A DNA stretch of 64,000 bases from Actinomycetota bacterium (GTDB lineage: Bacteria > Actinomycetota > UBA4738 > HRBIN12). Under the pieces are notes generated by a model. That model ran no database searches. It worked only from the letters and a program-made list of their open reading frames with translations, and was not told the DNA's origin. Each line of letters starts with the position of its first letter. Position 1 is the stretch's first letter. Both the position numbers and the translations under genes were made by a program. Below, piece after piece: positions 9,095 through 27,420 of the stretch. The stretch covers positions 395,489 to 459,488 of the forward strand of contig JBBRWM010000001.1 of the NCBI GenBank assembly GCA_038249195.1. Direction: 5' to 3'.

Positions 9095-9095
9095 C

Positions 9096-10589: not shown

Positions 10590-12661
10590 GACGCCCCCAG
10601 GGCCCGGGCCACGGCGAGCTCCTGGAGCGTCCGGTGGGCGTTCACACCACGCGTCGTGGGCACGCGGTGCCAGTTCCCTCCTCCGTCAAGCTCCCACGCC
10701 AGTTCGTCGTCCTCGAGCTCGATGCGCAGCACCTCGTCGACGCGCACCTGCAAGGCGGGGTCGAGCACGGGCGTGAGCGCCTCCACGCGCCGGTCGAGGT
10801 TGCGCGGCATCATGTCGGCCGACCCGATGAGGTAGTCGTAGCCTCGATCCACGCTGCCGAACCGGTAGACCCGCGAGTGCTCCAAGAATCGTCCCACGAG
10901 CGATCGCGCTCGGATGGTCTCCGACATGCCGGGCACGCCCGGGCGCAGACAGCAGATCCCGCGAACGAGCAGGTCGATCTGCGCGCCCTGCTGCGAGGCC
11001 TCGTACAGGGCGTCGATCAGGTCGACGTCCACCAGGCTGTTCATCTTCAGCACGATGGAGCCATCCTCGTGCTGCGCCTCGCGCCGGATCAACGCCTCCA
11101 GGCCCGGACGCATGGACACCGGCGCGACCAGCAGCTTGCGGTACTCGCGCTGTCGGCTGTACCCCGTGAGGAGGTTGAAGAGGTCGGTGAGGTCGGCGCC
11201 GAGGTCGGGGTCGGAGGTGAGCAGCCCGAAGTCCTCGTAGAGGCGCGCCGTCTTTGGGTTGTAGTTGCCCGTTCCGATGTGGGCGTAGCGTCGGATGCCC
11301 TCCTCTTCCTGGCGCACGACGAGGCAGGTCTTCGCGTGCGTCTTCAGCCCCACCACCCCGTACACGACGTGGACGCCCGCGTGCTCCAGCTCGCGAGCGA
11401 AGGTGATGTTGGCCTCCTCGTCGAAGCGCGCCTTGAGCTCCACCAACGCCACGACCTGCTTGCCGGACTGCGAGGCTCGGATCAAGGCCCTGATGATCCG
11501 GCTCTCCGACGACGTCCGATACAGCGTCTGCTTGATGGCCAACACGTTGGGATCGGCGGCCGCCTGCGCCACGAACTCCTCCACGGTGCCGGAGAACGAC
11601 TCGTAGGGATGGTGCACCAAGATGTCGTGATCTCGCAGCGTGGCAAGGATGTCCGGGGGGACGTCGGTCGCCTGCAGCTCGAGGGGTGTGACCGGCGTCC
11701 AGGGATCGTCCTTCAGGTCCGGGCGGTCCAGCTCGACGAAGAACCAGAGCCCCGCGGTGTCGATCAGTCCCTCGGTAACGAACACCTGCGGCTCGTCCAG
11801 ACCCATCTCCCGCATGAGCAAGCTCCGCACCTCGTCCGTCATGCCCGGATCGATCTCCAGGCGGATCGGGGTGGCGCCCCGCTGCCGTCGCTGCAGGACC
11901 GTTTCGATCGCGGCCAGGAGGTCATCGGCCTCCTCCTCCTCCACCTCCACGTCGGCGTCGCGCGTCACACGGAACACGTGGAACGTGACGAGGTCCATGC
12001 CTGGGAAGAGCTGGTCGAGGTGCGCCGCGATGACCTGCTCGAGCGGAACGAAACGCTCCCCGTCGGGCAGCGCCGTGAACCGTGGCAGCAACGGGGGGAC
12101 CTTGACGCGCGCGAACCGACGCAGACCCGTGTGAGGGTCGCGCACCACCGCGGCGAGGTTCAGGGAAAGGTTCGAGATGTAGGGGAACGGATGCGCAGGA
12201 TCCACGGACAGAGGCGTGAGCACGGGGAAGATCCGGTCGCGGAACCGCCGGGCGAGGAACGCCCGGTCGTCCTCGTCGAGCTGTTCCCAGTCCATGATGC
12301 GGATCCGGTGTTTCTCGAGGGCGGGCTTCAGCTCCGTGAGCCACACCGCCTCCGCCCGGTCGGACAGTTCCACCACTTTGCGGCGGACGCCCTCCAGCTG
12401 TTCGGCGGGGGTCATCCCATCCGGGGCAACGACCGTCACTCCCGCCTCGACCTGCTCCTCGAGCCCGGACACCCGGATCTGGAAGAACTCATCGAGGTTG
12501 CTCGCGTAGATCGAGAGGAACCTCACCCGCTCCAACGGCGGCCGATCCGGATCCTCGGCCAGCGCCAGGACCCGCGCGTCGAACTCCAGCCACGACAGCT
12601 CGCGGTTGATGAAGCGGTTGATCGCGGAGCCGGCGAGATCAGGGAAGGCGCTATCGGTCAT
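10586..12661 (-). CDS. ppk: Polyphosphate kinase 1
   Basis: 691 aa with full-length PPK1 similarity (NRELSWLEFDARVL, LDEFFQIRV, two PLD-like HKD regions). Confidence 0.95.
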   Translation of the reverse strand: MTDSAFPDLAGSAINRFINRELSWLEFDARVLALAEDPDRPPLERVRFLSIYASNLDEFFQIRVSGLEEQVEAGVTVVAPDGMTPAEQLEGVRRKVVELSDRAEAVWLTELKPALEKHRIRIMDWEQLDEDDRAFLARRFRDRIFPVLTPLSVDPAHPFPYISNLSLNLAAVVRDPHTGLRRFARVKVPPLLPRFTALPDGERFVPLEQVIAAHLDQLFPGMDLVTFHVFRVTRDADVEVEEEEADDLLAAIETVLQRRQRGATPIRLEIDPGMTDEVRSLLMREMGLDEPQVFVTEGLIDTAGLWFFVELDRPDLKDDPWTPVTPLELQATDVPPDILATLRDHDILVHHPYESFSGTVEEFVAQAAADPNVLAIKQTLYRTSSESRIIRALIRASQSGKQVVALVELKARFDEEANITFARELEHAGVHVVYGVVGLKTHAKTCLVVRQEEEGIRRYAHIGTGNYNPKTARLYEDFGLLTSDPDLGADLTDLFNLLTGYSRQREYRKLLVAPVSMRPGLEALIRREAQHEDGSIVLKMNSLVDVDLIDALYEASQQGAQIDLLVRGICCLRPGVPGMSETIRARSLVGRFLEHSRVYRFGSVDRGYDYLIGSADMMPRNLDRRVEALTPVLDPALQVRVDEVLRIELEDDELAWELDGGGNWHRVPTTRGVNAHRTLQELAVARALGAS

Positions 12662-12787: not shown

Positions 12788-13411
12788 TTGAAGCTCAAAG
12801 TTTCCCAGCGTCCCGAGGCATTCTTCGACCTCTTCGTCGAGTCCGGGGAAAACCTTCGCGCCGCCTCGAGCGAGCTCCGGGCGATGGTCCACGATTACCA
12901 AGACGTCGAACTGAAGGCTCGAAGGATCCAAGAACGGGAGCACGAGGGCGACGAGGTTACCCACGCCATCATCCGCCGCCTCAACACCACGTTCGTCACC
13001 CCGATGGACCGCGAGGACATCCACCAACTGGCCACGGCGCTGGACGACGTGATGGACGCCATCGAGGCGGCCGCAGATCTCTTCGTACTGCATAACATCG
13101 AGACGCCGCTGCCCGAGATGAAGCTGCAGGTCGACGTGCTCGATCGTGCTGCCGAGCAGACCGACCAGGCCCTGCGCGCGTTCCGCAGCCTCAAGCGAGA
13201 CGAGCTCGAGCCCTATTGGGTCGAGATCAACAGCTTGGAGAACGAAGGGGACCAGATCTATCGGCGCGCGGTGGCCGGCCTGTTCTCCGGCGACTACCGA
13301 GCGATGGACGTCCTGCGCTGGAAAGAGGTCATCGAGACGCTCGAGGAGGCCCTCGACGGACTCGAGAACGTCGCGAACGTGATCGAATCGGCGGTGCTCA
13401 AGCACGCCTGA
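12788..13411 (+). CDS. DUF47 (PhoU-superfamily) phosphate-transport-associated protein
   Basis: TTG start about 5 nt after AGGAGG. The sequence (AFFDLFVESGENL...GDEVTHAIIRRLNTTFVTPMDREDI) matches the DUF47/Pit-accessory family. It sits in-frame inside a longer spurious ORF antisense to ppk. Confidence 0.8.
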   Translation: MKLKVSQRPEAFFDLFVESGENLRAASSELRAMVHDYQDVELKARRIQEREHEGDEVTHAIIRRLNTTFVTPMDREDIHQLATALDDVMDAIEAAADLFVLHNIETPLPEMKLQVDVLDRAAEQTDQALRAFRSLKRDELEPYWVEINSLENEGDQIYRRAVAGLFSGDYRAMDVLRWKEVIETLEEALDGLENVANVIESAVLKHA

Positions 13412-13418
13412 ACGGGTG

Positions 13419-13646
13419 TCACGTCCTCGCGTCTCGACGGGCGTTCTTCCTCGGTGTGTGGGCAGGGCGGAGCGGCGTGGCCTTGCGGAGGGACCGTTCC
13501 TCCAGGTACAACGCGACAGCCCAGAACAGCGCCAGCCCGGCCGCGAACAGGTTGACCCATCGATACTCAGGCGGCGTGGGCTCCAAGATCAACAGGCAAA
13601 GGAACGCCAGGGCGGCGAAGAATAAGGGGCGGCGTCCGATCCTCAC
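13419..13646 (-). CDS. Small predicted 2-TM membrane protein (75 aa), translationally coupled to pitA
   Basis: GTG start overlaps the pitA stop (GTGA). VRIGRRPLFFAALAFLCLLILEPTPPEYRWVNLFAAGLALFWAVALYLEERSLRKATPLRPAHTPRKNARRDART has two hydrophobic helices and a basic tail, with high GC3. Confidence 0.35.
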   Translation of the reverse strand: MRIGRRPLFFAALAFLCLLILEPTPPEYRWVNLFAAGLALFWAVALYLEERSLRKATPLRPAHTPRKNARRDART

Positions 13647-14632
13647 GTGACCGCCTTGATCGGTAGGTACACGAGATAGCTGATCACGAACGCCCCCGGG
13701 ATCGTCAGGACCCAGGCCCACACGACCCGTTGGGCGACCCCCCATCGCACCGCCGACAAGCGCTGCGTGGTGCCCACACCCACGATGCCGCCCGTGATCG
13801 TGTGCGTGGTCGACACGGGGATCCCCGCGAGGGTAGTGGCCATGATGGTGACCGCCGCCGCCGACTCGGCGGCCACCCCCTGCGCCGGCTGGATCTTGGT
13901 GATCTTCGAGCCCATCGTGTGAACGATGCGCCAGCCCCCGAACAGCGTGCCGAGCGCGATCGCCGTGTGCGCACTCAACACCACCCAGAGCGGGACACCC
14001 TCGGCCTTGGTGCGTAGGCCGTTCGCGACGAGAAGAGCGAACACGACGCCCATCGTCTTCTGCGCGTCGTTGGCCCCATGGGCGAGGCTGAACGCCGCGG
14101 CCGAGAACAACTGCCCGTGGCGGAAGCCACGATGCAGCCGCTCCTGGCGTTTGGCCCGATGGAAGAGCCAATAGATCGCCACCATGAACGTGAATCCCAA
14201 CAGCAGCCCCAGCACGGGGGAGAGCACGATGAATACCGCGATCTTCTGGAACTCGGATGCAACGAGGGCCCCCCAGCCCGCCTCCGCCACCGCCGCGCCC
14301 GCCATCGCCCCGACGAGAGCATGGGAGCTGGAGGTCGGAAGGCCGAACAGCCATGTGATGAGATCCCAAGCGATCGCTCCCGCGAGGCCCGCGAAGATCA
14401 CCCCGTTGTTGAAGACCCCCGGCTTGACCGTGTTCGCGATCGTAGCGGCCACCTTCGTGCCGAACACGAGGAACGCAACGAAGTTGAAGAATGCCGCCCA
14501 TGCCACGGCTTGGCGAGGAGACAGCACCCGCGTCGACACGACGGTGGCGATCGAGTTGGCCGCATCGTGGAAACCGTTGAAGAAATCGAACCCGAACGCC
14601 ACCACGACGATGACGGCGATCGCAGGCGTCAT
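13643..14632 (-). CDS. pitA: Inorganic phosphate transporter, PiT family
   Basis: PHO4/PiT signatures (GFHDAANSIATVVST ... GANDAQKTMGV), about 10 TM helices. Start chosen at MTPAIAVIVVV; 4-nt overlap with the upstream DUF47 gene. Confidence 0.9.
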   Translation of the reverse strand: MTPAIAVIVVVAFGFDFFNGFHDAANSIATVVSTRVLSPRQAVAWAAFFNFVAFLVFGTKVAATIANTVKPGVFNNGVIFAGLAGAIAWDLITWLFGLPTSSSHALVGAMAGAAVAEAGWGALVASEFQKIAVFIVLSPVLGLLLGFTFMVAIYWLFHRAKRQERLHRGFRHGQLFSAAAFSLAHGANDAQKTMGVVFALLVANGLRTKAEGVPLWVVLSAHTAIALGTLFGGWRIVHTMGSKITKIQPAQGVAAESAAAVTIMATTLAGIPVSTTHTITGGIVGVGTTQRLSAVRWGVAQRVVWAWVLTIPGAFVISYLVYLPIKAVT

Positions 14633-15246
14633 GCGAACTTGAGCGCCACGGACTCGAGCGTGTTCGCGATGTCCTCGCAACGGTCCACAGCCGCCTCAGC
14701 CTCGCGGAGCAGATCCTTCCACATGATGACCTCGAGAGGTCGGAAGTCTCCCGAGTACAGGGTTGCGACCCCGCGGCGATACACCCAGTCCCCTTCGCGT
14801 TCGTTCCGCTTGATCTCGGCGATGGCCTTCTCCAGTCCTTGGAAATGCCTGAGGTCCCTGACGGCGAACGCCACGGACGTAGCCGTCCGGCGAAGGACGT
14901 CGACGAGCTGGAGGAACTGCGGGAGCGGCTCGCGGATCTGGAGGAGCACGAGCAGGTCGGCCAAAGCCTCTTCGGAATCCAAGACATCGTCGAGCGAGGA
15001 CGCGAGTGCGTGGATGTCCTTACGATCGATCGGGACGACGAAGGTCGTATTCAGGAGGTTCAAGATCTGGTGGGTCAGGTCGTCGCCGTCGTGTTCGAGA
15101 TCGCGGATCCGGTCGCCATAGCCTTCCGCGTTACCCAGGTCGGTGATCATCGCGGAGAGGTCCACGACCCCCCGGACGACCGTATCGGCGAGCTGATCGA
15201 ACAGATCGAAGAAGGCGAGTTCGCGGGGGATGACTTGGAACGGCAT
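14629..15246 (-). CDS. DUF47 (PhoU-superfamily) Pit accessory protein
   Basis: LAFFDLFDQLADTVV...GDDLTHQILNLLNTTFVVPIDRKDI. This is the classic DUF47 partner immediately upstream of pitA. Confidence 0.85.
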   Translation of the reverse strand: MPFQVIPRELAFFDLFDQLADTVVRGVVDLSAMITDLGNAEGYGDRIRDLEHDGDDLTHQILNLLNTTFVVPIDRKDIHALASSLDDVLDSEEALADLLVLLQIREPLPQFLQLVDVLRRTATSVAFAVRDLRHFQGLEKAIAEIKRNEREGDWVYRRGVATLYSGDFRPLEVIMWKDLLREAEAAVDRCEDIANTLESVALKFA

Positions 15247-15302: not shown

Positions 15303-15342
15303 GGTGTCCACTGGGTGAACACGAAGGGAACGAGAGGTGTCG
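15303..15342 (-). promoter_or_regulatory. PHO box array (four 11-nt direct repeat units) upstream of DUF47-pitA
   Basis: The minus strand reads CGACACCtctc GTTCCCTtcgt GTTCACCcagt GGACACC, i.e. four units in strict 11-nt register. The third is the canonical GTTCACC. The array is centred about 70 nt upstream of the DUF47 start. Confidence 0.55.
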
Positions 15343-16038
15343 CTAATCGACGAACTTGTAGCCCAACCCTCGCACCGTGATCAGGTGCTCGGGGTCGTGC
15401 GGATCGTCCTCGACCTTCTGCCGGATCCGCTTCACGTGCACGTCGAGCGTCTTGGTGTCCCCCACGTAGTCACTCCCCCACACGTCTTCGATCAAGAACA
15501 GGCGGGTGAGCAGACGATCCTTCCGGCGCAGGAACGCCTCCAGCAGCTCGAACTCCTTGGGTGGGAACGCCACGAGGTCCCCCTGGACCGATACCTCGTG
15601 GCGGGCCACGTCCATCCGCACGGGACCGCCGGTGAGGACCTCCTCGGGCGGAAGCGCGGTTCCCATCGCCGCCCGGCGCAGGTGCGCCCGGACCCGCGAG
15701 ACCAGTTCGCGCACCGAGAATGGCTTCGTGACGTAGTCGTCCGCCCCCAATTCGAGCCCCGTCACCTTGTCGGCCTCGGCGTCCTTGGCCGTGACCATGA
15801 TGATCGGCACGGCGGAGTCCTGACGGATGAGGCGGCACACGTCCAGTCCGGACATCTCAGGGAGCATCAGGTCCAAGATCACGAGCGCGGGATGGAACTC
15901 GGCGAAGCGCTCCATGGCCCGTCGTCCGTCCGAGGCGACTGCCACATCGAAGCCTTCCCGCTCGAGGTTGTAGCGGACCGAGTCGGCGAGCGACTCTTCA
16001 TCTTCAACGATCAGGATCCGCGGCGACGGGCCGTTCAT
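15343..16038 (-). CDS. regX3: OmpR-family response regulator, RegX3/PhoP-like
   Basis: RILIVEDEESLADS...LDLMLPEMSGLDVC...VPIIMVTAKD...LELGADDYVTKPFSVRELVSRVRAHLRR is near-identical in pattern to mycobacterial RegX3. ATGA overlap with phoU. Confidence 0.9.
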   Translation of the reverse strand: MNGPSPRILIVEDEESLADSVRYNLEREGFDVAVASDGRRAMERFAEFHPALVILDLMLPEMSGLDVCRLIRQDSAVPIIMVTAKDAEADKVTGLELGADDYVTKPFSVRELVSRVRAHLRRAAMGTALPPEEVLTGGPVRMDVARHEVSVQGDLVAFPPKEFELLEAFLRRKDRLLTRLFLIEDVWGSDYVGDTKTLDVHVKRIRQKVEDDPHDPEHLITVRGLGYKFVD

Positions 16039-16715
16039 GCATCCTCGTGCGAGGCGTCCGTGAACTCCCGGAATTCCCCCGTGATGAGGTAGGCGACCTG
16101 CTCGCCGATGTCCACCGCGTTGTCGCCCACACGCTCGAGGGCGCGGGCCGCGACGTTCATGTGCATGCCCCAGTCCAGCGCGGCGGGATCGTCGGCGAGC
16201 TTGAGCGCCTCGAGATGCGTCGCGCGATTCAGGCGGTCGACGGGGTCGTCCATGGTGGTGAGGGTGCCGCACAGTTCGAAATCCCTGCTGGCGAGGGCCT
16301 CCATCGCGGTGCGGACCATCCGCACGACGATGGTCCCCATCTCCCCCAGCTGCTGACGCAGCGGATCGCTCCCAGGGAGGCTCGACGTGGCGAGATGGAG
16401 CTTGGCGACGTTCACCGCCTGGTCGCCGATGCGCTCCAGGTGCAGGCAGCAGTGCATGAGCGTCGAGACGAGCCGCAGGTCGGAGGCCACGGGTGCTTGG
16501 AGAGCGAGCAACGCCAGCACGCCCTGATCGATCTGCAGGTAGAGGGTGTCGATCGCGTCGTCGCCAACGATCACCCGCTTCGAACGCCCGGCGTCGTTCT
16601 CGACCAACGCCGCCACCGCCTCGTGTACCGCGTTCCCGGCGAGTTCGCCGAGCCGCTGCAGGTCGCCCTCGAGGTTGTCGAGCTCTTCGTGGAACTTCTT
16701 GCGTGTTCCCTGCAT
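16035..16715 (-). CDS. phoU: Phosphate-specific transport system regulator PhoU
   Basis: 226 aa with two PhoU repeats (ERIGDQAVNVAK ... ERVGDNAVDIGE). Confidence 0.9.
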   Translation of the reverse strand: MQGTRKKFHEELDNLEGDLQRLGELAGNAVHEAVAALVENDAGRSKRVIVGDDAIDTLYLQIDQGVLALLALQAPVASDLRLVSTLMHCCLHLERIGDQAVNVAKLHLATSSLPGSDPLRQQLGEMGTIVVRMVRTAMEALASRDFELCGTLTTMDDPVDRLNRATHLEALKLADDPAALDWGMHMNVAARALERVGDNAVDIGEQVAYLITGEFREFTDASHEDA

Positions 16716-17473
16716 CAGCCGAACCTCCCGGTCACGTAGTCCTCCGTTCGATGGTCGTCGGGATTTGTGAACACCTTCTCTGTGGGCGCGAACTCGACGG
16801 CCTCGCCCAGCAGCATGAAGAGGGTCCAGTCCGAGACGCGGGAAGCCTGTTGCATGTTGTGCGTGACGATCACGACCGTGTACTGCTCCTTCAGCTCGGT
16901 CACGAGCTCCTCGATCCGAAGCGTCGAGGCCGGGTCGAGGGCGGACGCAGGCTCGTCCATCAGGAGCACCTCCGGATCGACGGCCAGCGCGCGCGCCACG
17001 CAGAGGCGCTGTTGCTGACCACCGGAGAGCCGTCCGCCAGGCGTCTGCAGCCGATCCTTGACCTCGTCCCACAGGCCGGCCGATCGCAACGCCTTCTCGG
17101 CCCGATCCTGGAGGTCTGCCTTGGACATCCGGCCGCCCCCCAGCCGCGCGCCCGCGACGGCGTTGTCGAAGATGCTCATCGTGGGAAACGGATTCGGGCG
17201 TTGGAAGACCATCCCGATGCGCCGGCGCACCTCGACCGGGTCGACGTCGGAGCCGTAGATGTCCTGACCGTCGAAGAGGATCTTCCCTTCGACCCTGGCT
17301 CCCTGCACCTCCTCGTGCATGCGGTTCATGCAGCGAACGAGGGTGGACTTGCCACATCCGGACGGGCCGATGATGGCGGTGACCGTCTTCGGCTCGGCCA
17401 CCACGTTCACGTCCTGCAAGACGTGGGCGGCGCCGAACCACGCGTTGAGACCCGATGCTTCGATCCTTCTCAC
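16715..17473 (-). CDS. pstB: Phosphate ABC transporter ATP-binding protein
   Basis: Walker [13 protein letters not shown] signature LSGGQQQRL, Walker B LLMDEP. GTG start overlaps the pstA stop (GTGA). Confidence 0.95.
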
Positions 17474-18360
17474 GAGAGCCTCTTCCGTTGTCGGTGGCTG
17501 ACATAGCGGGCGCCGATCGACAGCGCGAGCACGAACGCGAGCAGCGTGATCGCCCCGCCCCAGGCGATCGTGTGCAGCGCCTCCACGGGCGTTCGAGCGT
17601 ACGCGTACAGGCGCAGCGTCACCGAGTCCGTCGTCTTCGTCGGATCGAAGTTGATGAAGTTGCTGCCCAGGGTGGTGAGCAGGAGCGGCGCGGTCTCTCC
17701 CAGTCCGCGGGCGACGGCGAGCATGATAGCGGTCAGGATGCCTGCTCCCGCGGTGGGGATCACCACCCTCACGATCACCTTCCAGCGCGGTAGCCCGAGC
17801 GCGAGCCCCGCCTCGCGCAGCTCGTTGGGAACCAGACGCAGGATCTCTTCCGTGGCGCGCGTGATGATGGGCCACATCAAGAACGCGAGCGCGAGCGCCC
17901 CGGCGATCGCCGAAAAGCTGCCCATCCACACGACCACCACGGCCCAGATGAACGCGCCGGCGATGATGGACGGGGTGGATAGGAGCACCTCGGCTACGAA
18001 GCGCACCGCGCCGGCGAATCGTCCGCGCCCGTACTCCGCGAGGTACACGGCCGCGAGCAGCCCCAAGGGGATCGAGATGGCCGCGGCCATCCCCGTGATG
18101 ATGGCGGTGCCGATGAACGACTGCACGATCCCTCCCGCCGAGGGATTGAGCGGTCCAGCGGGCTCCTTCGTGAAGAAGTTGACGGTGAGCGCCGACCAGC
18201 CCCGCATCACCACGTAGCCGATGATCAGGGCGAGCGGGATGAAGACGAGGATCGCGCACGCGATCATGAAGACCCCATACGCCCGGTCCTTGGTTCGGCG
18301 GCGCCCGCTCACCTTCCCCGCGAGCAGCGACGGCGCGGTCGCGACGGCAATCGCGCTCAT
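17470..18360 (-). CDS. pstA: Phosphate ABC transporter permease
   Basis: PstA-type permease with the EAA-like motif region ([11 protein letters not shown]). ATGA overlap with pstC. Confidence 0.9.
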
Positions 18361-19397
18361 CGATCCCTCCCTCCGCGGCCCTCTTCGGCCTCCGCGACCG
18401 CCACCTCGACGGTCGCGCTCACGGAGATACGCGGGTCGCGGCCCACGAGGACGCGCGACAGCGCCGCGAACCCGAACGTCAAGGCGATCAGGATCAGCGC
18501 CAGCCCAAGCAAGGCGGAACGATGCAGGCCGACGCTGGTGGCGTCGCGGAAGCTGCTCGCGATCCACGAAGGGATCGTCACGCCGGCGCCGAAGAGGCTC
18601 GTGCTGATCCGCGTGGTGTTGCCGACGAGCAACGAGACCGCGATCGTTTCGCCGAGCGCTCGGCCAAGCCCAAGCATGGTCGCCCCGACGATGCCGCTGC
18701 GCGCATACGGCAGGACCGCGATGCGTGTGGTCTCGTAGCGCGTCGCGCCGATGGCCTTGGCGGCCTCACGGAGGTCTCGCGGCACGGTGGCCACGACCTC
18801 CCGCGTGACCGCCGTGACGATCGGGATGATCATGATCGCCAAGATCACGCCGGCGCTGAACAGGTCCGGACCGACCGTGTTGCCGGAGAAGAGCTTGCCG
18901 ACCACGGGGATCCACCCCAGCGTGGTGTGCATGAACGGCTCGATGTACTTGTCGAGGAACGGCTTCAGGATGAACAGCCCCCATAGTCCGTAGACGATGC
19001 TCGGGATCGCCGCGAGCACGTCGACGAACGTGGCCAGGGGGTTGCTCACCCACCCCGAACGGACCTCGTTGAGCAGCAGGGCGAGCCCTACGGATACGGG
19101 GACCGCCAGCACCACGGCCACGAACGAGGTCACGAGCGTGCCGTACACGAAGGGCAAAGCGCCGAACGACTCCCGCCCCGCCACCGTGTTCCAGTCGGTC
19201 CCCGTGAAGAAGGAGAATCCGAACGTGGAGAAGATCCTGGAGCTGCCGTCGATGAGCTCGAGGATCAGGGCGATCAGCAGCAGGATCAGGCCGGCGGCGA
19301 CCACCGCCGTGGTCCATCTGAAGGCCCTGTCCACGACCTGGGAGCGCCGCCCGATGGGCGGCGCTCCCTCGGCTGCGATCAGGCCGCCTGACTCCAT
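18357..19397 (-). CDS. pstC: Phosphate ABC transporter permease
   Basis: PstC-type permease ([13 protein letters not shown]..., [17 protein letters not shown]). Confidence 0.9.
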
Positions 19398-19404: not shown

Positions 19405-20517
19405 CTAGCCGGTCACGTTCGACGATGCTTGGATCGGAGTGCCCTGGTAGGAGACCTTTGCCAGCTGCGCGAGTCCCCCCTGCGCGATCTCCGTCGGTAG
19501 CGGAGAGTAGTTCAACTGCGTCGCCGTGTCCTGACCGGGCCCCAGGGCCCAGGTCACGAAGTCCACGAGGGTCTTCCCCTTGGACTGATCCGTCTGATCC
19601 AGGTAGATGAGCAGGTAGGTCGTGCTCGCGATCGGGTACGCGCCCTCGGCCGGGGAATTCAGGATGTTGGTGTCCGGGCTGATGGGGAACTTCAGGATGC
19701 CCCCCGCGGCGCTGATGCTCTCGATCGACGGTGCGACGTAGGTGCCGTCGTCGCGCTTGATCGCACCCACCCGGAGGTCGCTCTTGAGCGCGAAGTCGAA
19801 CGACAGGTACCCGATGGAGCCCTGCGTCTGGGTCATCGCAGCCGCGACGCCGTCGTTCCCGTCGCCGCCCTGCCCGGCCGGCCACTGGACCGCCTTGTCC
19901 GCACCCACGTCCTTCTTCCACGACGGGCTCTCGTCGGACAGCCACGAGGTGAACACGAACGTGGTCCCGGACTCGTCGGAACGGTGCACGACACTGATGT
20001 CCATGTCGGGAAGGCTGACGCCGGCGTTCTGGCCGGCGATCGCGGAGTCATTCCACTTCGTGATCGTGCCGGCGAAGATGTCGGCCACGGTCGAGCCGTC
20101 GAGCTTCAGCCCGTCGTCGACGCCCGGGACGTTGTACGAGACGGCCACGCCGCCGAGCACCGTCGGGATCTCGATCGCATCGCCAGGGAGGGCCGCGATC
20201 TCGTCGGACTGCAACGGGGCGTCCGACGCGCCGAAGTCGACGGTCTGGGCGGTGAATTGCTCCACCCCACCGCCCGAGCCGATCGCCTGATAGTTGATCT
20301 GCGCGCCCGATTCGACGCTCGGGAAGTCCTGGAACCACTGCTCGTAGATGGGATCGGGGAACGTCGCGCCGGCGCCCGTCAGGGCCACGCCGTCGAAGCT
20401 GCCACCAGACGAGCTCGAACCCGATGAGGAGCTGTCGTTGTTGCTGCTACAGGCGGCGGCGGCCAACGCCAAGATCATCCCCGCCGCGACCACGCTGGCC
20501 CTGGTTCGCTTCACCAT
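19405..20517 (-). CDS. pstS: Phosphate-binding lipoprotein PstS
   Basis: Signal peptide with lipobox (LALAAAACS) and a Ser/Gly-rich linker. PstS fold motifs (TGAGATFP, IAYRSDxSGTT-like HRSDESGTTFVFT). Confidence 0.9.
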   Translation of the reverse strand: MVKRTRASVVAAGMILALAAAACSSNNDSSSSGSSSSGGSFDGVALTGAGATFPDPIYEQWFQDFPSVESGAQINYQAIGSGGGVEQFTAQTVDFGASDAPLQSDEIAALPGDAIEIPTVLGGVAVSYNVPGVDDGLKLDGSTVADIFAGTITKWNDSAIAGQNAGVSLPDMDISVVHRSDESGTTFVFTSWLSDESPSWKKDVGADKAVQWPAGQGGDGNDGVAAAMTQTQGSIGYLSFDFALKSDLRVGAIKRDDGTYVAPSIESISAAGGILKFPISPDTNILNSPAEGAYPIASTTYLLIYLDQTDQSKGKTLVDFVTWALGPGQDTATQLNYSPLPTEIAQGGLAQLAKVSYQGTPIQASSNVTG

Positions 20518-20596
20518 GTCGATCTCGACCTCCTCGTCGTGAGTTGTCCGCCCGTGGGAACGCTAGGAGTTGGGCATGGACACCTGATTGCGCGAG

Positions 20597-20634
20597 CGTG
20601 AACGCAACGTGAACGCCGCTCTCACGATGAACGG
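20597..20634 (-). promoter_or_regulatory. PHO box (PhoP/RegX3-type direct repeats) upstream of pstS, shared with divergent sensor kinase gene
   Basis: On the minus strand there are two perfect heptamers CGTTCAC (core GTTCAC) spaced exactly 11 nt apart, about 80-100 nt upstream of the pstS start. A third, degenerate GTTCATC unit lies 19 nt further upstream. Coordinates +-2. Confidence 0.55.
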
Positions 20635-20692
20635 GCCGGGAACGAGGACAACAGGAGAAGAAGGGGAAGCAGCCGCGACATGAACGGCTCAC

Positions 20693-21895
20693 GTGTCCCG
20701 TCGGGACGGATCGGGCAGACCCTACACTGCCGCCATGGACGGTCTCGGATGGATCGTGGCCGTGGTGGTCGGGGGACTCGCCGTGGCGGCGGGCATCGCG
20801 CTCGGCCGGAGCTCTCGGGCTCACGCCCTGAGCAGGTCGCAGGAGCGAGCGTCCGCGGCCGAGGCGGCGCTCGAGCGCATCGATCGTTCCTCAAAACACG
20901 ACCGACGCGTTCAGGACCTGATCCTGGCGACCATGCAGGAAGGGATCCTGCTGCTGGACGACGGGGGGCGGCTCGCGTTCGCCAACGATGCCGTCGCACG
21001 ACACCTCGGCAGGCGCCCCGCCACGATCCACCAGCTCCTACCCATGGCCGCACGAGATCTGGTCGAACGCGTCGCCGTCACGGGGGAGGGTGAGAGCTGC
21101 GAGGCTGCCTACGGGAGCCCCACACGATGGTTGCGGGTCACCGCGACACCGGCGGGCGCGGACGGGTCGCTGCTGGTGGTCGTTCGCGACGTCACCGAGT
21201 CCCGTCGCATCGAACACATCCGCCGCGATTTCGTCGCGAACGCCTCGCACGAACTGAAGACACCGGCGGCAACCATCCAGGCGGCCGCGGAGACCCTCCA
21301 CGACGCGGCCCAGGACGACCCCGCTGCCGTGCGGCGTTTCGCGACCCAACTCGATCGTGACGCCCGGCGATTGTCCCGCATCGTCGCCGACCTCCTCGAC
21401 CTGTCTCGGCTCGAGACAGGGAGCGAACTCGATCAAGACGTGCGGCTCGAGACGGTCGTCAACGACGAGGCGGGCCGCTTCGAAGCGGCCGCACGGGAGG
21501 CTGGTCTTGCCCTCGTCGTCGACCCGCATCGCGCCGGGCGCGTGCGGGGGTCCTCCCGGGACCTCTCCCTGCTGGTGCGCAACCTCATCGACAATGCGGT
21601 CCGGTACACGCCGCGGGGAGGGACCGTGCGTGTCGAGCTCACCGAGGACGACGACGTGGTCCACCTGTCGGTGTGCGACGACGGGGCGGGGATCCCCACG
21701 AGGGATCTCCCGCGGGTCTTCGAGCGGTTCTACCGCGTGGATCGGGCTCGCTCCCGGGAAACGGGGGGCACCGGTCTCGGCCTGTCCATCGTCAGGCACG
21801 TGGCGGAGAACCACGGCGGCAACGTCCACGTCACGAGCGAGCTGGGCCGAGGGTCGACCTTCGTCGTGACCATCCCGCTCGCGCCGCCCGCCTAG
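20693..21895 (+). CDS. Sensor histidine kinase, SenX3/PhoR-like (TM + PAS + HisKA + HATPase)
   Basis: One N-terminal TM helix, a PAS-like segment, H-box ANASHELKTP, N/G boxes (NLIDNAVRYT, DDGAGIP, GGTGLGLSIV). Divergent from pstS. Alternative ATG start near 20735. Confidence 0.85.
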   Translation: MSRRDGSGRPYTAAMDGLGWIVAVVVGGLAVAAGIALGRSSRAHALSRSQERASAAEAALERIDRSSKHDRRVQDLILATMQEGILLLDDGGRLAFANDAVARHLGRRPATIHQLLPMAARDLVERVAVTGEGESCEAAYGSPTRWLRVTATPAGADGSLLVVVRDVTESRRIEHIRRDFVANASHELKTPAATIQAAAETLHDAAQDDPAAVRRFATQLDRDARRLSRIVADLLDLSRLETGSELDQDVRLETVVNDEAGRFEAAAREAGLALVVDPHRAGRVRGSSRDLSLLVRNLIDNAVRYTPRGGTVRVELTEDDDVVHLSVCDDGAGIPTRDLPRVFERFYRVDRARSRETGGTGLGLSIVRHVAENHGGNVHVTSELGRGSTFVVTIPLAPPA

Positions 21896-21916
21896 GCACC
21901 CGTATGCTGCGGGCCG

Positions 21917-22597
21917 ATGACCACACTCTTCCTCATCCGGCACGGGCTCACGGGACAGACCGGCACCACGCTGTACGGCCGCACAACGGGGATCGAGCTG
22001 GACCATCGGGGGCAGGAGCAGGCCCGTGTCCTCGCCGAGCGGTTCGCCTCGGTGCGGCTCACGGCCATCTACTCGAGCCCTCTCGAACGCTGCCGGCAGA
22101 CCGTGGAGCCGCTGGCGGCGGCGCATCGCCTCACGGTGGCCGAGCGGCAGGGCCTCATCGAGATGGACGCCGGTTCATGGACCGGGAAGACGCTCGCCCG
22201 GCTGCGGCGGAACAAGGCGTGGGCGCAGGTGCAGACCGCGCCGTCCACCTTCCGTTTCCCCGGCGGCGAGAGTTTCGCGGAGGCGTGGGACCGGGCCGGC
22301 GCGGAGATGGACGCGATCGCGCGGCGCCACCCCCGGGGCCGGATCGCCGTCGCCACCCACGGGGACGTCGCGAGGCTGATCCTCGGTCGGTACCTCGGCG
22401 CTCCCCTTGACGCCTTCCAACGGATCGTGGTCGACACCGCATCCGTCTCTGTGGTCCATGTCGTATCCGGCGGGCGTCCTCACGTGCTGCTGATGAACGA
22501 CGCCGGGGGCCTCGATCGCTTCGGACCCAAGGGCGCGACACCCCCGTGGGAGACGCGTCAGCCGCCCACTCGCGCCGGTAGGAACCTGCGAGGATAG
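21917..22597 (+). CDS. Histidine phosphatase (phosphoglycerate mutase family), MSMEG_4193-like
   Basis: RHG motif LFLIRHGLT and a catalytic His region (IAVATHGDV). It is the first gene of the conserved actinobacterial trio. Confidence 0.75.
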   Translation: MTTLFLIRHGLTGQTGTTLYGRTTGIELDHRGQEQARVLAERFASVRLTAIYSSPLERCRQTVEPLAAAHRLTVAERQGLIEMDAGSWTGKTLARLRRNKAWAQVQTAPSTFRFPGGESFAEAWDRAGAEMDAIARRHPRGRIAVATHGDVARLILGRYLGAPLDAFQRIVVDTASVSVVHVVSGGRPHVLLMNDAGGLDRFGPKGATPPWETRQPPTRAGRNLRG

Positions 22598-22603
22598 AAC
22601 GCC

Positions 22604-23125
22604 ATGGAGCTCGGACCCGTCGATCGCATCACCGCCGATGCCGTGGGCGAACCCGGTGCTCGCACGTTCTACATCCAGGCCCGCCACGGCGATCAAGTCG
22701 TCAGCGTGATCGTGGAGAAGCAACAGGTGCAGCTCCTGGCGGCCTCGGTCCTTGACCTGCTGGCCGACCTCGACGTCGAGACGGGACTCGGGCCCGGCGA
22801 TCAGCTGATGGAGCTGGAGACTCCGGTCGACCCGCTCTGGCGCGCGGGCCGGCTGTCCATCGGGTTCGACCAGGAGCGCCGCCTCTTCCAACTCGAGGTC
22901 GAGGAGTTCCAGCCGGAGGTGGAGGACGACGACCCTCGCTCGCTGCTCGCCGAGGAACCGCAGACGATCCGGATCTGGGCCAGCACCGAGCAGATGCTGG
23001 CGTTGTCCCGCCATGGGTCCGAGGCCGTGGAACGGGGGCGGCCCGCCTGCCAGTACTGCGGGAACCCAATGGATCCGGAAGGACACGCGTGTCCCGCGAT
23101 GAACGGGCACTCGAAGCGGGACTGA
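22604..23125 (+). CDS. DUF3090 family protein
   Basis: ITADAVGEPGARTFYIQ ... C-terminal CQYCGNPMDPEGHAC Cys cluster. Always paired with an SCO1664-family gene. Confidence 0.7.
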   Translation: MELGPVDRITADAVGEPGARTFYIQARHGDQVVSVIVEKQQVQLLAASVLDLLADLDVETGLGPGDQLMELETPVDPLWRAGRLSIGFDQERRLFQLEVEEFQPEVEDDDPRSLLAEEPQTIRIWASTEQMLALSRHGSEAVERGRPACQYCGNPMDPEGHACPAMNGHSKRD

Positions 23126-23838
23126 TCGATCCCGCGGTGCCTCGCGCGCTCGCCCGCGGCGAGCTGACGATCCTTGGACTGATGCCCAACTCGTCCAACT
23201 ACACGTTCCTCACGAAGGCCGAGACCTCCGAGGAGTCGGTCCTCGCGATCTACAAGCCGCGCCGTGGAGAGATCCCGTTGTGGGATTTCCCCGAGGGGAC
23301 CCTCGCGCAGCGTGAGGTGGCCGCCTACGTCGTGGCGCGCGCCCTGGGGTGGCCCAACGTGCCGCCCACGATCCTTCGCGACGGACCGGAGGGGGTCGGC
23401 TCGGCGCAGCTCTTCGTCGCCTTCGACCCGGGGCAGCACTACTTCACCCTGCAGGAGGAGCATGAAGACACGTTCGTCGACGTCGCCCTCTTCGACGCCG
23501 TGATCAACAACGCCGATCGGAAAGGAGGCCACTGCCTCTTGGGCGAGGACGGCTCCATCTTCCTGATCGATCACGGCGTGTGCTTCAACGTGGACGACAA
23601 GCTGCGCACCGTCATCTGGGACCACGCGGGTGAGCCGATCGACGCCGCGCGCCTCGAGGACCTCCGGCGATTCGGCGCCGGGCTCGACGATCCTCGGGAC
23701 CCCGTCGGCGCCGAGCTCGGGGCCCTGCTCGATCCGGAGGAAACGCAGGCGCTGCGCCGGCGCCTGCGATCCCTGATCGCCGGCCGCGTGCTCCCCCGGC
23801 CGGAGCTGGATCGCCCCTTCCCCTGGCCCCCCGTGTGA
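23089..23838 (+). CDS. SCO1664-family protein (PI3/4-kinase-like fold)
   Basis: GTG start overlaps the DUF3090 gene end. Conserved SCO1664/TIGR03843-type regions (SNYTFL, IYKPRRGE, NNADRKGGH, LIDHGVCF). Confidence 0.7.
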   Translation: MSRDERALEAGLIDPAVPRALARGELTILGLMPNSSNYTFLTKAETSEESVLAIYKPRRGEIPLWDFPEGTLAQREVAAYVVARALGWPNVPPTILRDGPEGVGSAQLFVAFDPGQHYFTLQEEHEDTFVDVALFDAVINNADRKGGHCLLGEDGSIFLIDHGVCFNVDDKLRTVIWDHAGEPIDAARLEDLRRFGAGLDDPRDPVGAELGALLDPEETQALRRRLRSLIAGRVLPRPELDRPFPWPPV

Positions 23839-24407
23839 TGAGGCCGCGTGATGGTGCCTCCGTGAGGGAGCCCCTGCGGTTGGTGCGCGTGCCCACCCCC
23901 ATCGGGTCGTTCTGCGTTGCGTGCTCTGCAGACGGCGTGATCGCCACGGAATTCGCGTCCGAGCACGACGACCCGCGGGCGTTCGGGGACCGCTTGGGGG
24001 AGCTTTATGACGTCCCCGTCGTGCGATCCGGCGCGGATCTCGCGGACGTGCGTCGGGAGGTCCGTGACTACTTCGGGGGTCGCATCCGCGCGTTCTCGAC
24101 CCCCGTGGACCTCGGCCGGGCTGGCACGGGGTTCGGCCGCCGGGTGCTGGCGACGACGGCCACGATCCCGTTCGGCGAGCTGTGGACCTACGGGGACGTG
24201 GCCGCGATGGCGGGCACCCCCCGCGGCGGCAGGGCTGCGGGCAATGCCCTTCGCCGCTGCCCGATCGAGCTGTTCGTCCCGTGTCATCGGGTCGTGCACG
24301 CCGGCGGCGGCATCGGCGGCTACGGCAGCCACGACGAGCGGAAGCGGTGGCTGATCAGGTTCGAGACCGCGGGCGAGCACCGAACCGGACGCTCGCGGGT
24401 GCCGTAG
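23835..24407 (+). CDS. ogt: Methylated-DNA--protein-cysteine methyltransferase
   Basis: Active-site motif PCHRVV and the DNA-binding helix region (YGDVAAMAGTPRGGRAAGNAL). ATGA overlap with the previous gene. Confidence 0.85.
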   Translation: MMRPRDGASVREPLRLVRVPTPIGSFCVACSADGVIATEFASEHDDPRAFGDRLGELYDVPVVRSGADLADVRREVRDYFGGRIRAFSTPVDLGRAGTGFGRRVLATTATIPFGELWTYGDVAAMAGTPRGGRAAGNALRRCPIELFVPCHRVVHAGGGIGGYGSHDERKRWLIRFETAGEHRTGRSRVP

Positions 24408-24413
24408 GAGAAG

Positions 24414-25400
24414 ATGGAGCCCATGAAGGACCGTCGGACCTCCCTGCTCGCGCTCGCCTTACTCACGCTCGCCGCGGCGTGCAGCAAAAGCACGGACGCC
24501 GCCGCCCCCTCGACGCCGGTCTCGAGCGGCGCGTCCACGTTCGCCATCGAGGTGGCCACCACCGATCTGTACATCCATACCCCCCAGCGCGTCGAGGTAG
24601 GGGTGCTGTCCACCACGACGAACGGCGTGCAACTGGTGAGCTTCGGCGAGGTGCCACTTGCGTTCACGTACCTCGGAACGAACGGTTCCGCCACCCCAGA
24701 GCCGGGCCCGACGGCGACCGCCACGTACCTCGGCACCCCAGGGACCCAGATGGATGGGACTGGGCCGGCCATCACGGACGCGGCGACCGCCCGGGGCGTG
24801 TATCAGGCGCAGCACGTCGTGTTCGACGAGCCGGGCACGTGGCAGGTCCAGGTGACGGCCGACGTCGTGGGCGTCGGGAAGCAGGTCCTCACGAGCGCCT
24901 TCCCGGTGGCGTCGAAGCCCGCGCTGCCGGCGCCGGGCGACGCGGCCCTGCGCACCCAGAACCTCACGGTGGCCTCCAAAGGCGTGCCTCGCTCGGCGAT
25001 CGATTCGAGGGCCCAGGACGGCGCCGCGATCCCCGACCCCGAGCTGCACGGGACGACCATCGCGAAGGCGCTGCGAGCCGGCAAGCCCATCCTTGCGTTG
25101 TTCGCGACCCCTCTGTACTGCACCAGCCGCTTCTGCGGGCCGACGACCGATGCCCTGCAGGCGATGGCCGACGCCCACCCCGATGCGGCCTCCTACATCC
25201 ACATCGAGATCTGGAAGGACTACCAGAAGAGCGTCCTGAACAAGGCCGCGGCCGATTGGCTCTACCGCAACGGCGACCTCCGGGAGCCCAGGCTGTTCCT
25301 GATCGGCACGGACGGGCGCATCGCCGATCGCTGGGCGCCGCTGTTCGACCCCGCGCAGGTCATGCGAGAGCTCGACGCGCTGCCCAACACCGGGGATTGA
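24414..25400 (+). CDS. Lipoprotein with C-terminal thioredoxin-like domain (C-x4-C)
   Basis: Lipobox LTLAAACS. The C-terminal segment has a thioredoxin-like pattern with YCTSRFC. Function unknown; it precedes a CDF transporter. Confidence 0.5.
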   Translation: MEPMKDRRTSLLALALLTLAAACSKSTDAAAPSTPVSSGASTFAIEVATTDLYIHTPQRVEVGVLSTTTNGVQLVSFGEVPLAFTYLGTNGSATPEPGPTATATYLGTPGTQMDGTGPAITDAATARGVYQAQHVVFDEPGTWQVQVTADVVGVGKQVLTSAFPVASKPALPAPGDAALRTQNLTVASKGVPRSAIDSRAQDGAAIPDPELHGTTIAKALRAGKPILALFATPLYCTSRFCGPTTDALQAMADAHPDAASYIHIEIWKDYQKSVLNKAAADWLYRNGDLREPRLFLIGTDGRIADRWAPLFDPAQVMRELDALPNTGD

Positions 25401-25442: not shown

Positions 25443-26423
25443 ATGCGAGAGCCGGACGCGCAACACCACCACCCCCATCGACACGACCAGCCGCAGGAAG
25501 CCGGGGACCGCCACGAGCACTTCGGTCCGGTCGACGCCGCAACGATCGCGACCCGCAGGGGCGTCCGCGCCACCTGGATCTCCCTTATCGCCTTGCTGTG
25601 GACGGCGTTGATGCAGCTCCTCATCGTGTCTGCCACGGGCTCGGTGGCCCTCCTCGCGGACACGATCCACAACTTCACGGACGCCCTGACCGCCATCCCG
25701 CTGCTGATCGCCTTCCGCCTGGCGCGGCGGCCTCCCACGAGGCGATATTCCTACGGGTACCACCGAGCGGAGGATCTCGCGGGCGTCGTGATCGTCGCCG
25801 TGATCCTCGTCTCAGCCGTGGTGGCCGCCGCCGAGGCCGTCGGCCGGCTGATCCATCCCCAGCCGGTCGACCACGTCGGGTGGCTCCTGGCCGCAGGGGC
25901 CGTGGGCGCCATCGGCAACGAGGCCGTGGCGCTGTACCGCATCCGCGTGGGCCGCTCGATCGGCTCGGCCGCGATGGTGGCCGACGGCCTCCACGCCCGC
26001 ACCGACGGGCTCACGTCTCTGGCCGTGATCGGGTCGGCACTCGCGGTACTCGCCGGGTTCCCGCGTGCCGACCCGCTGATCGGGCTCGCCATCACCGTCG
26101 TGATCTTCTGGACGCTTGTCCAGGCCGCGCGCGCCGTCATCCATCGCGTCCTCGACGGGACCGACGAGCAGACGATCGCCCTGATCCAGGAGGTGGCGGC
26201 CTCCGTCGCCGGGGTCGAGCACGTGGGCGACACCCGCGCGCGCTGGACCGGGCATCAGCTGCTCACCGAGCTCAGCATCGACGTGGAGGCGACCCTGTCG
26301 GTGCAGGACGGGCACGAGGTCGCCGAACGGGTGCGCGAGGAGCTCCTCGAGCACGTGCCTCGGCTCGCCGGCGCCTCGGTCCACGTCGACCCGCACGAGC
26401 ACGAGTCCCACACCCCCGCGTAG
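25443..26423 (+). CDS. Cation diffusion facilitator (CDF) metal efflux transporter with His-rich N-terminus
   Basis: Six-TM CDF core (LLADTIHNFTDALTAI, HARTDGLTSLAV), a C-terminal cytoplasmic domain, and an N-terminal HHHPHRHD stretch. Confidence 0.85.
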   Translation: MREPDAQHHHPHRHDQPQEAGDRHEHFGPVDAATIATRRGVRATWISLIALLWTALMQLLIVSATGSVALLADTIHNFTDALTAIPLLIAFRLARRPPTRRYSYGYHRAEDLAGVVIVAVILVSAVVAAAEAVGRLIHPQPVDHVGWLLAAGAVGAIGNEAVALYRIRVGRSIGSAAMVADGLHARTDGLTSLAVIGSALAVLAGFPRADPLIGLAITVVIFWTLVQAARAVIHRVLDGTDEQTIALIQEVAASVAGVEHVGDTRARWTGHQLLTELSIDVEATLSVQDGHEVAERVREELLEHVPRLAGASVHVDPHEHESHTPA

Positions 26424-26439: not shown

Positions 26440-27420
26440 ATGGTGCCCATGGATCCGCAGGACACCATGCCGCCGCCGCCCACCACGCAGTATTGCTATC
26501 GCCACCCAGCGGTCGCCACCGGCATCCGCTGTACGCGCTGCGGCCGTCCCATCTGCACGGATTGCATGGTGCAGGCGCCCGTGGGCTACCACTGCCCCAC
26601 GTGCGTGAGCGAAGCGCGCCGGGAGTTCCGCAAGGGACCGGGGCGTCGCATCGCCGTCGCCAACGCACGGTCCACCTCCGTCACCGTGCTCATCCTCGGC
26701 GCGATCGTGGCGATGTACGTGGTGGAGGTGGTGGTGGGCGGGCCCGGCTCGTTGTTCGGGGGGCCGAACTCGAACCAACTCGTGAGGCTGGGCGGGTCGG
26801 TTGCCGCCTGGCCCACGCCGACGGGGGTCGTCGGGATCGCCGAGGGCCAGTACTGGCGGCTGTTCACGTCCATGTTCCTGCACGCAGGGCTGATCCACCT
26901 CGCGTTCAACGCCTACGCACTCTGGATCTTCGGACGCGTGATGGAAGAAGAGTTCGGCCGCGTGCGCTTCTCGCTGTTGTACGTGCTGACGGGCCTGTTC
27001 GGAGGCGCGGTCTCCTACGCGTTCGTCACGTTCGACGTGTTGGCGAACGGACAGGTGGTGATCCCAGCGGTGGCCGTGGGGGCCTCGGGCGCGATCTTCG
27101 GCATCTTCGGCGCGTTCGTCGCCTTCAACTGGCGACGGCGCCACACGCCAGTAGCGGCCGCCCGCCTGCGCATGGCGGTGACCCTGATCCTGATCAACGC
27201 GCTCATCGGATTCTCCTCGGGTGGCGCCATCGATTGGCGCGCCCACGCGGGCGGTTTCGTGGCCGGTCTGTTCGCAGGCTACGCGGCCGAGGGCTTCGGG
27301 CGTCTGCGCGACGAGCGCGTGAGCTTCGCGATCGGTTGCGTCGCCCTCGCCGCCGCGACGGTCGCGATCGCGCTGTGGAAGACGGCCTCGATACACCAGC
27401 GGTTCCCCGGCCTGCTGTGA
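26440..27420 (+). CDS. Rhomboid-family intramembrane serine protease with N-terminal zinc-ribbon
   Basis: N-terminal C-x2-C...C-x2-C twice (CYRHP..CTRCGRPICTDC..CPTC). Rhomboid core with GASGAIFG (catalytic Ser) and a downstream His (AHAGG). Confidence 0.8.
   Translation: MVPMDPQDTMPPPPTTQYCYRHPAVATGIRCTRCGRPICTDCMVQAPVGYHCPTCVSEARREFRKGPGRRIAVANARSTSVTVLILGAIVAMYVVEVVVGGPGSLFGGPNSNQLVRLGGSVAAWPTPTGVVGIAEGQYWRLFTSMFLHAGLIHLAFNAYALWIFGRVMEEEFGRVRFSLLYVLTGLFGGAVSYAFVTFDVLANGQVVIPAVAVGASGAIFGIFGAFVAFNWRRRHTPVAAARLRMAVTLILINALIGFSSGGAIDWRAHAGGFVAGLFAGYAAEGFGRLRDERVSFAIGCVALAAATVAIALWKTASIHQRFPGLL

Follow-up and report, generated by a model that had tools for sequence, protein, structure and literature searches.

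A conserved phosphatase-DUF3090-kinase gene trio beside a phosphate sensor gene in one uncultured Actinomycetota lineage probably carries its own promoter

The gene trio Rv2133c-Rv2135c of Mycobacterium tuberculosis, which corresponds to MSMEG_4193-4191 in Mycobacterium smegmatis and to the SCO1664 region, counts among those actinobacterial gene sets that are widely conserved yet have no assigned function. Its members code for a histidine phosphatase, a DUF3090 protein, and a kinase-like protein of the SCO1664 family, and in model actinomycetes they are flanked by uppP and mshC (PMC3866925, PMC4255298). Rv2135c was reported to be an acid phosphatase and not a mutase (PMC3866925). Beyond this, a search for published functional work on DUF3090, SCO1664-1666, Rv2133c-2135c, MSMEG_4191-4194, and TIGR03843/7 returned only incidental listings in screens. 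Here we describe the trio in a 64,000-nucleotide (nt) stretch of DNA from an Actinomycetota bacterium (GenBank assembly GCA_038249195.1, contig JBBRWM010000001.1, positions 395,489 to 459,488), termed the window below, where it directly follows the gene for a putative phosphate sensor histidine kinase. We lean toward the view that the trio is an autonomous kinase/phosphatase module with its own promoter, and that its adjacency to the sensor gene reflects the synteny of one uncultured Actinomycetota lineage. The families and their co-occurrence were already catalogued; this is an uncharacterized system in a lineage-specific context, to which we add structural assignments, a recurrent gene fusion, an extension to Chloroflexota, and a promoter analysis of the claim that the genes form one operon.

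Five open reading frames (ORFs) follow one another on the + strand. They encode the PhoR/SenX3-like sensor kinase (20735-21895, within an ORF open from 20693), a His_Phos_1 phosphatase of the MSMEG_4193/Rv2135c type (21917-22597), a DUF3090/TIGR03847 protein (22604-23125), an atypical kinase of the SCO1664 family (TIGR03843) with a predicted type II phosphatidylinositol 4-kinase (PI4K)-like fold (23089-23838), and the O6-alkylguanine-DNA alkyltransferase Ogt (23835-24407). The intervening gaps are 21, 6, -37, and -4 nt, although the public gene call starts ogt at ATG 23838, which would reduce the last overlap to 1 nt. These coordinates bear out the gene order and spacings of the initial annotation, and its family names held up in profile scans, with the phosphatase scoring just under the cutoff of its own family, TIGR03848. 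Ogt scores above the cutoff of its family (TIGR00589, 77 bits against 46.4), with the PCHR active site present as VPCHRV in the translation. Gene calls on a matching Logan metagenome contig (SRR19962012) agree with the window ORFs, and the same layout is found in a relative with 93% identity, on a metagenome-assembled genome contig of 2.66 Mb.

The closely packed run continues past ogt to 27420 on the same strand, with genes for a 328-amino-acid (aa) lipoprotein (24414-25400, CxxxC), a CDF transporter (25443-26423), and a rhomboid protease (26440-27420), separated by gaps of 6, 42, and 16 nt. The CDF gene has a TATCAT element of its own, 9 nt before its start. The lipoprotein carries a CTSRFC motif, has no family match except a faint one to YtkA, precedes a gene for metal efflux, and is conserved in the related clade. 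About 90% of the window is coding, the median gap between genes on the same strand is 11 nt, and 62% of such gaps are 25 nt or shorter. Spacing this close is thus ordinary for the window and says nothing particular about function.

It had been proposed that the sensor kinase gene, the trio, and ogt form a single Pho-regulated operon driven from a PHO-box promoter, and that the trio acts in phosphate or phospho-metabolite homeostasis. The 21-nt gap and the lack of any terminator-like site on the + strand between the sensor kinase gene and the trio agree with this proposal. However, an independent promoter is probably present in the same gap, because the -10-like element TATGCT (21903-21908, + strand) is situated 8 nt before the phosphatase ATG, is conserved in relatives, and is not accompanied by a Shine-Dalgarno (SD) sequence. 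The sensor kinase gene has a predicted leaderless promoter of its own, TACACT (20723-20728, + strand), whose placement 6 nt before ATG 20735 and whose equivalents in 10 of 12 relatives make this ATG the probable start (386 aa, as in the public gene call).

In mycobacteria, SigA -10 elements conform to ANNNT or TANNNT at -6 to -13, and leaderless mRNAs are common (PMC6448022). A TANNNT sequence 5-10 nt upstream, with no SD sequence, marks nine of the 57 gene starts in the window, as compared with 0.7% of all ATG/GTG triplets, and these nine starts belong mostly to the first genes of strand runs. The DUF3090, SCO1664-family kinase, and lipoprotein genes have SD sequences or overlaps rather than TANNNT. 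A sigma-70 consensus scan of 20300-24700 yielded no promoters, but such a scan is uninformative at 69% GC and was replaced by the TANNNT/leaderless analysis. An Rfam scan of the window at the gathering threshold gave no match.

To place the locus among its relatives, species-representative genomes were scanned with the SCO1664 profile, which produced at least 80 loci; the counts given here and below hold among the matches listed. Of the 16 closest related loci, 15 show a -10-like element that precedes the phosphatase start by 6-11 nt. Two of these (L004 and L006) are especially informative, because a Ppx/GppA-like exopolyphosphatase gene on the minus strand (520 aa, assigned by sequence inspection; 7179-8741 in L004 and at the same position in L006) separates the sensor kinase gene from the trio, and the element is nevertheless kept. 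Since the intervening ppx gene is convergent, the trio in these two loci must have its own promoter, which rules out obligatory co-transcription. At least 13 Chloroflexota loci have an extended -10 element (TGnTAtcAT) that precedes the phosphatase gene by 31-44 nt. The trio in the window thus probably has a leaderless-type promoter in the 21-nt gap, and the predicted transcription units are the sensor kinase gene alone, phosphatase-DUF3090-kinase-ogt (perhaps with the lipoprotein gene), and CDF-rhomboid. Because no terminator was seen, read-through from the sensor kinase gene is possible, and co-transcription with it is likely at some level.

The PHO boxes named in the initial annotation are indeed present, between pstS and the sensor kinase gene, and 10 related loci keep a PHO motif in the same orientation ahead of the kinase gene. 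The predicted array (20593-20643, - strand) comprises four 11-nt direct repeats, which on the pstS strand read GTTCCCGGCCC, GTTCATCGTGA, a 7-nt spacer, GTTCACGTTGC, and GTTCACGCTCG. The direct repeat units (DRus) bound by Streptomyces PhoP have the consensus G(G/T)TCAYYYR(G/C)G, of which the first six positions are critical (PMC2275107), and the tandem 11-nt repeats in the window agree with it at these six bases. The only exact match to GTGAAC-N5-GTGAAC in the 64 kb lies at 20598-20614, and a weaker pair lies at 20627-20643. Allowing up to two mismatches, there are nine matches in the window, a number reached by none of 100 shuffled sequences. A further PHO-box-like triple repeat (15304-15331) is located just upstream of the DUF47-Pit genes.

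The orientation of the array does not fit the proposed operon well. The repeats face pstS, whose candidate -10 element (TAGCGT, 20565-20560) is 40-90 nt downstream of them, and relative to the start of the sensor kinase gene they are inverted and at -92 to -142. We infer that they are oriented and placed for pstS. Moreover, in the 66 loci scanned, the 300 nt that precede the phosphatase gene contain no PHO box with at most one mismatch. The idea that one transcript from the PHO-box promoter serves all five genes is therefore weakened both by the conserved TATGCT in the gap and by repeats that face the other way.

Comparison among genomes further separates the trio from the sensor. The trio order is kept in about 70 of the 80 loci listed, and these belong to two phyla. 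Its description as a conserved and uncharacterized actinobacterial system consequently stands as regards conservation and lack of function, but not as regards taxonomic range, because many Chloroflexota (Anaerolineae, Caldilineae, Chloroflexia, Herpetosiphon, and Dehalococcoidia) have the same order. The physical linkage to the phosphate sensor is likewise real but narrow, being conserved in about 12-14 closely related genomes and absent from the other loci listed. The full block, in which pst-phoU and the response regulator gene diverge from kinase-trio-ogt-lipoprotein-CDF-rhomboid, is found in L003-L008, L010, L012-L015, L025, and L082, which represent the nearest uncultured Actinomycetota (kinase identity 52-93%).

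In this clade ogt lies directly 3' of the trio, and the lipoprotein-CDF-rhomboid continuation is syntenic. Because the conservation includes genes as unrelated as ogt, CDF, rhomboid, and the flanking PQQ-like and pheA genes, it appears to reflect general synteny. Outside the clade, no link between the trio and Pho genes was seen in Chloroflexota or in other Actinomycetota. Neighbors elsewhere include a nucleotidyltransferase/phosphomannomutase fusion and TsaE (both in Caldilineae), acyl-CoA synthetases, Gmd-like and fumarase-like proteins, and kinases that are not PhoR; no other gene family recurs beside the trio. A possible Pho-type kinase next to the trio in Anaerolineae was considered and rejected, because the kinases in question (L073 and L063) are one TPR kinase and one hybrid receiver-kinase.

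The phosphatase has a complete catalytic core. It matches PF00300 with 174 bits, and R8, H9, R58, E82, and H148 are conserved in 63 homologs. TIGR03848 is by far its best-scoring family, even though the score (192.9 bits) narrowly misses the cutoff of 203.85, and the gene lies beside the TIGR03847 and TIGR03843 genes. The nearest characterized relatives are the small-molecule phosphatases PspA, PhoE, Rv3214, and CobC. A SixA-like role, in which the enzyme would remove phosphate from the histidine of the adjacent sensor kinase, was rejected because the match to SixA is marginal (E 8e-4) and because the genes that accompany the phosphatase gene are those for DUF3090 and the SCO1664-family kinase, not those for histidine kinases. 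The conserved C-terminal LRG of the phosphatase was also examined as a docking motif and rejected, since these residues are accounted for by GAGGA, the ribosome-binding site of the DUF3090 gene, which sits within the last phosphatase codons. The window holds a second, unrelated His_Phos_1 gene (59235-59945; CobC/PspA-like, TIGR03848 88 bits) that adjoins a Na+/H+ exchanger gene.

The DUF3090 protein is a full-length member of its family (TIGR03847, 151.4 bits against 117.25; PF11290, 148.4 against 27). Its AlphaFold2 (AF2) model (pLDDT 85) has two beta4-alpha repeats and a poorly modeled C-terminal tail, CxxC...HxC...H. The best Foldseek match is to PUR-alpha repeats I-II, but this match is marginal (E 2.7e-3, TM 0.42-0.50, root-mean-square deviation 13 A). 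Only G15, G18, R20, F22, Q25, E38, K39, L45, P74, Q130, G145, and R146 are at least 93% conserved in 74 sequences, and since none of these is a Ser, Thr, Tyr, or His, DUF3090 is not a likely target of the kinase. A subgroup from Anaerolineae (L016, L030, L038, L044, L045, L055, L060, L062, L063, L066, L068, L070, L073, and L080) does not have the tail and ends with GRxDPxQNGRxxYYWT, and therefore the zinc-knuckle-like motif is not universal in the family.

Gene organization ties DUF3090 to both of its partners. Its gene overlaps that of the SCO1664-family kinase by 36-48 nt in most loci of the clade. In one locus (L059, 8699-9880), the phosphatase and DUF3090 are a single 393-aa ORF, and at least 120 distinct clusters at 90% identity (388-457 aa; P0241-P0360) combine PF00300 with PF11290, commonly in Chloroflexota metagenome bins. 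Such a recurrent natural fusion argues that the phosphatase and DUF3090 work together physically, presumably as a complex.

The third member belongs to a very large family, in which all 8000 of the 8000 candidates scored passed E 1e-5. It matches TIGR03843 over its full length (270 bits against 172.4). Its PF00454 score of 20.2 bits is below the gathering value of 27.1, whereas most close homologs carry a precomputed PF00454 match. The AF2 model (pLDDT 85, pTM 0.87) finds its top Foldseek matches in type II PI 4-kinases alpha and beta (PI4KII-alpha/beta; 4hne, E 5e-7, TMq 0.60; 4wtv), followed by CtkA of Helicobacter pylori, in support of the PI3/4-kinase-like fold first suggested for this protein. 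Across 73 sequences drawn from the two phyla, K56 (within YKP), the stretch D143-R144-K145-x-H148, and D161-H162-G163 do not vary, and these residues supply the ATP-binding Lys (K56), the catalytic-loop Asp (D143), and the DFG-like Asp (D161). A sequence search of the PDB with the kinase and DUF3090 found no solved homolog and only chance-level matches to FAM20A and FADD. As modeled, the protein is a minimal kinase that resembles type II PI 4-kinases and has its catalytic residues intact.

In the explanation that we favor, the trio would be a self-contained module expressed from its leaderless-type promoter in the 21-nt gap, with ogt and probably the lipoprotein gene riding on the same transcript. 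The SCO1664-family kinase may phosphorylate a substrate other than protein, for instance a sugar, an inositol, a lipid head group, or a nucleotide-type molecule, and the histidine phosphatase would remove or relocate that phosphate. DUF3090 could serve as a substrate-binding or regulatory subunit of the phosphatase that is made in step with the kinase. Several points weigh against this explanation. The predicted promoter is deduced from a motif of 6 nt and from how well this motif is conserved, its distance of 8 nt slightly exceeds the commonest 6-7 nt, one relative (L013) has an SD sequence and no TANNNT, and a terminator between the sensor kinase gene and the trio is lacking. The adjacency of sensor kinase gene and trio persists across kinase identities of 52% to 93%, the insertion of ppx exactly between them in two loci is what a functional phosphate theme would also predict, and the PUR-like assignment of DUF3090 is itself marginal.

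Some of these points return as evidence for the Pho-regulated operon, which has further in its favor the PHO repeats kept upstream of the kinase gene and a neighborhood rich in phosphate genes (ppk1, CYTH-CHAD, Pit/DUF47, and pst-phoU). A link of the trio to phosphate, as a hypothesis, draws on the conserved adjacency, the missing terminator, and the ppx insertion. Against it stand a promoter that the trio appears to own, the absence of a PHO box at the trio, boxes that face pstS, and no Pho linkage elsewhere. We therefore consider a single Pho-regulated operon unlikely. Direct Pho control of the trio is not indicated, and a role in phosphate control is possible.

The fold of the SCO1664-family protein raises another explanation, in which the kinase and phosphatase act on phosphatidylinositol, a phosphatidylinositol mannoside, or an inositol-phosphate intermediate, and the phosphatase is perhaps MshA2 or a phosphatidylinositol phosphate (PIP) phosphatase. 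The occurrence of the trio in Actinomycetota and Chloroflexota matches phyla known for inositol lipids, and type II PI 4-kinases are the top fold matches. In addition, SCO1664 is reportedly linked invariably to mshC in actinomycetes (PMC4255298), and recent papers on mycothiol name MshA2 simply as "a phosphatase" (PMC13156731). However, the window has no mshC, ino1, or PI-synthase gene, neither dephosphorylation step needs a kinase, and the kinase has no evident membrane anchor. Chloroflexota are not known to make mycothiol, and because the module is autonomous and common in that phylum, its function cannot be specific to mycothiol. An inositol-linked function thus seems decidedly doubtful.

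It is less probable still that the trio processes or repairs nucleic acid ends, with DUF3090 binding single-stranded DNA or RNA and the kinase and phosphatase healing 5'-OH and 3'-phosphate ends in co-expression with ogt. The PUR-alpha match and the C-terminal Cys/His knuckle of DUF3090 hint at such a role, but the former is marginal and the latter is absent from the Anaerolineae subgroup. The ogt gene overlaps that of the SCO1664-family kinase and is conserved downstream, but only in the one clade. By their NCBIfam names, MutT1 has a histidine-phosphatase domain that acts on nucleotides, and Rv2228c has one joined to RNase H. A published list of transposon mutants sensitized to rifampicin includes Rv2134c along with rnhC and uvrA (PMC11329110). 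Nevertheless, no polynucleotide kinase with a PI4K fold is known.

A more far-reaching idea joins the inositol and phosphate themes. The trio might make and erase a phosphorylated signaling metabolite or lipid, for example of the inositol type, and in this lineage the module would then be tied to the PhoR/pst locus to report or buffer phosphate. Eukaryotes offer an analog in PPIP5K/Vip1, in which a kinase and histidine-phosphatase pair sets the level of an inositol pyrophosphate that signals phosphate status. We give this idea only a slim chance. The least probable explanation is a protein phospho-switch, with DUF3090 or some other protein phosphorylated by the kinase and dephosphorylated by the histidine phosphatase, for although protein kinases of this fold (CtkA and eukaryote-like enzymes) are among the Foldseek matches and the three genes always travel together, the closest branch-1 histidine phosphatases are small-molecule enzymes (PspA, PhoE, CobC, and Rv3214), and no Ser, Thr, Tyr, or His is at least 93% conserved in the 74 DUF3090 sequences from both phyla, which makes DUF3090 an unlikely phospho-acceptor.

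The sensor kinase gene is divergent from an operon on the - strand that contains pstS (19405-20517), pstC (18357-19397), pstA (17470-18360), pstB (16715-17473), phoU (16035-16715), and, as its last gene, a response regulator gene of the OmpR/PhoB family (15343-16038). PstS (TIGR00975, 346 bits) and PhoU (TIGR02135, 163 bits) score above their cutoffs. The best NCBIfam matches of the regulator (MtrA, YycF, and PhoB) are all below theirs; the protein at the equivalent position in L082 has Response_reg and Trans_reg_C domains. The sensor kinase has a transmembrane-PAS-HisKA-HATPase_c architecture by Pfam and misses the equivalog cutoffs of PnpS (302 bits against 400) and PhoR (284 against 334). 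Its genomic association is nonetheless that of a phosphate sensor, with divergence from pstS, four DRus between the two genes, and a regulator that ends pstSCAB-phoU, and we describe it as PhoR/SenX3-like. The two-component genes are split, with the regulator ATG overlapping the phoU stop (ATGA) and the kinase gene alone on the opposite strand, and the relatives are alike in this respect.

On the far side of the pst operon, and part of one phosphate island with it, are genes for a MutT1-like NUDIX and His_Phos protein (8213-9286, - strand), a CYTH-CHAD protein (9096-10589, -), Ppk1 (10586-12661, -), a DUF47 paralog (12788-13411, +), a Pit/PHO4 transporter (13643-14680, -), and a second DUF47 protein paired with Pit (14629-15246, -), the two DUF47 proteins being 45% identical. 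Elsewhere in the window are three tandem genes for LuxR/GerE-type response regulators (39400-41588, - strand), whose receiver-domain scores are weak and in two cases at or below the Pfam gathering score, a cluster with a Tad/T2SSE-type pilus ATPase (34270-38757), and, after it, a polysaccharide cluster (45067-59024) that includes one Wzy-like gene, one Wzz/tyrosine-kinase-like gene, and several genes that resemble those of sulfotransferases.

These observations place a module found in two phyla at the edge of a phosphate island in one lineage. If it is true that the SCO1664-family kinase acts on inositol lipids or metabolites, then it would be a bacterial phosphoinositide-type kinase. Compared with PI4KII-alpha and -beta (4hne, 4wtv), the modeled protein shares the ATP-binding Lys in YKP, a catalytic loop that contains DR, and a DFG-like IDHG, all of which are invariant, but it is prokaryotic, only 249 aa long, 16-18% identical, and has no evident membrane anchor. 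The AF2 model of DUF3090, with two beta4-alpha repeats, matches PUR-alpha best but at a marginal score, and the protein differs from PUR-alpha/Whirly-type domains by its additional Cys/His tail and by its fusion to the phosphatase in many Chloroflexota.

The sensor side of the locus most closely resembles PhoR-PhoP of Streptomyces and SenX3-RegX3 of Mycobacterium. With these systems it shares 11-nt direct repeats that begin with GTTCAC upstream of pstS and the PAS-HisKA-HATPase architecture of the kinase. In the window, however, the kinase and regulator genes are apart, and the regulator gene ends pstSCAB-phoU. In its three families, their order, and its intact catalytic residues, the trio itself matches Rv2135c-Rv2134c-Rv2133c, MSMEG_4193-4191, and the SCO1664 region, although the phosphatase reads RHG where Rv2135c has RHA. 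The DUF3090 and kinase genes are tightly coupled both here and in the model organisms, in accordance with RNA-seq data from M. smegmatis that group MSMEG_4192-4191 as an operon. What sets this locus apart is its flanks, which are a PhoR-like kinase gene and ogt rather than uppP and mshC.

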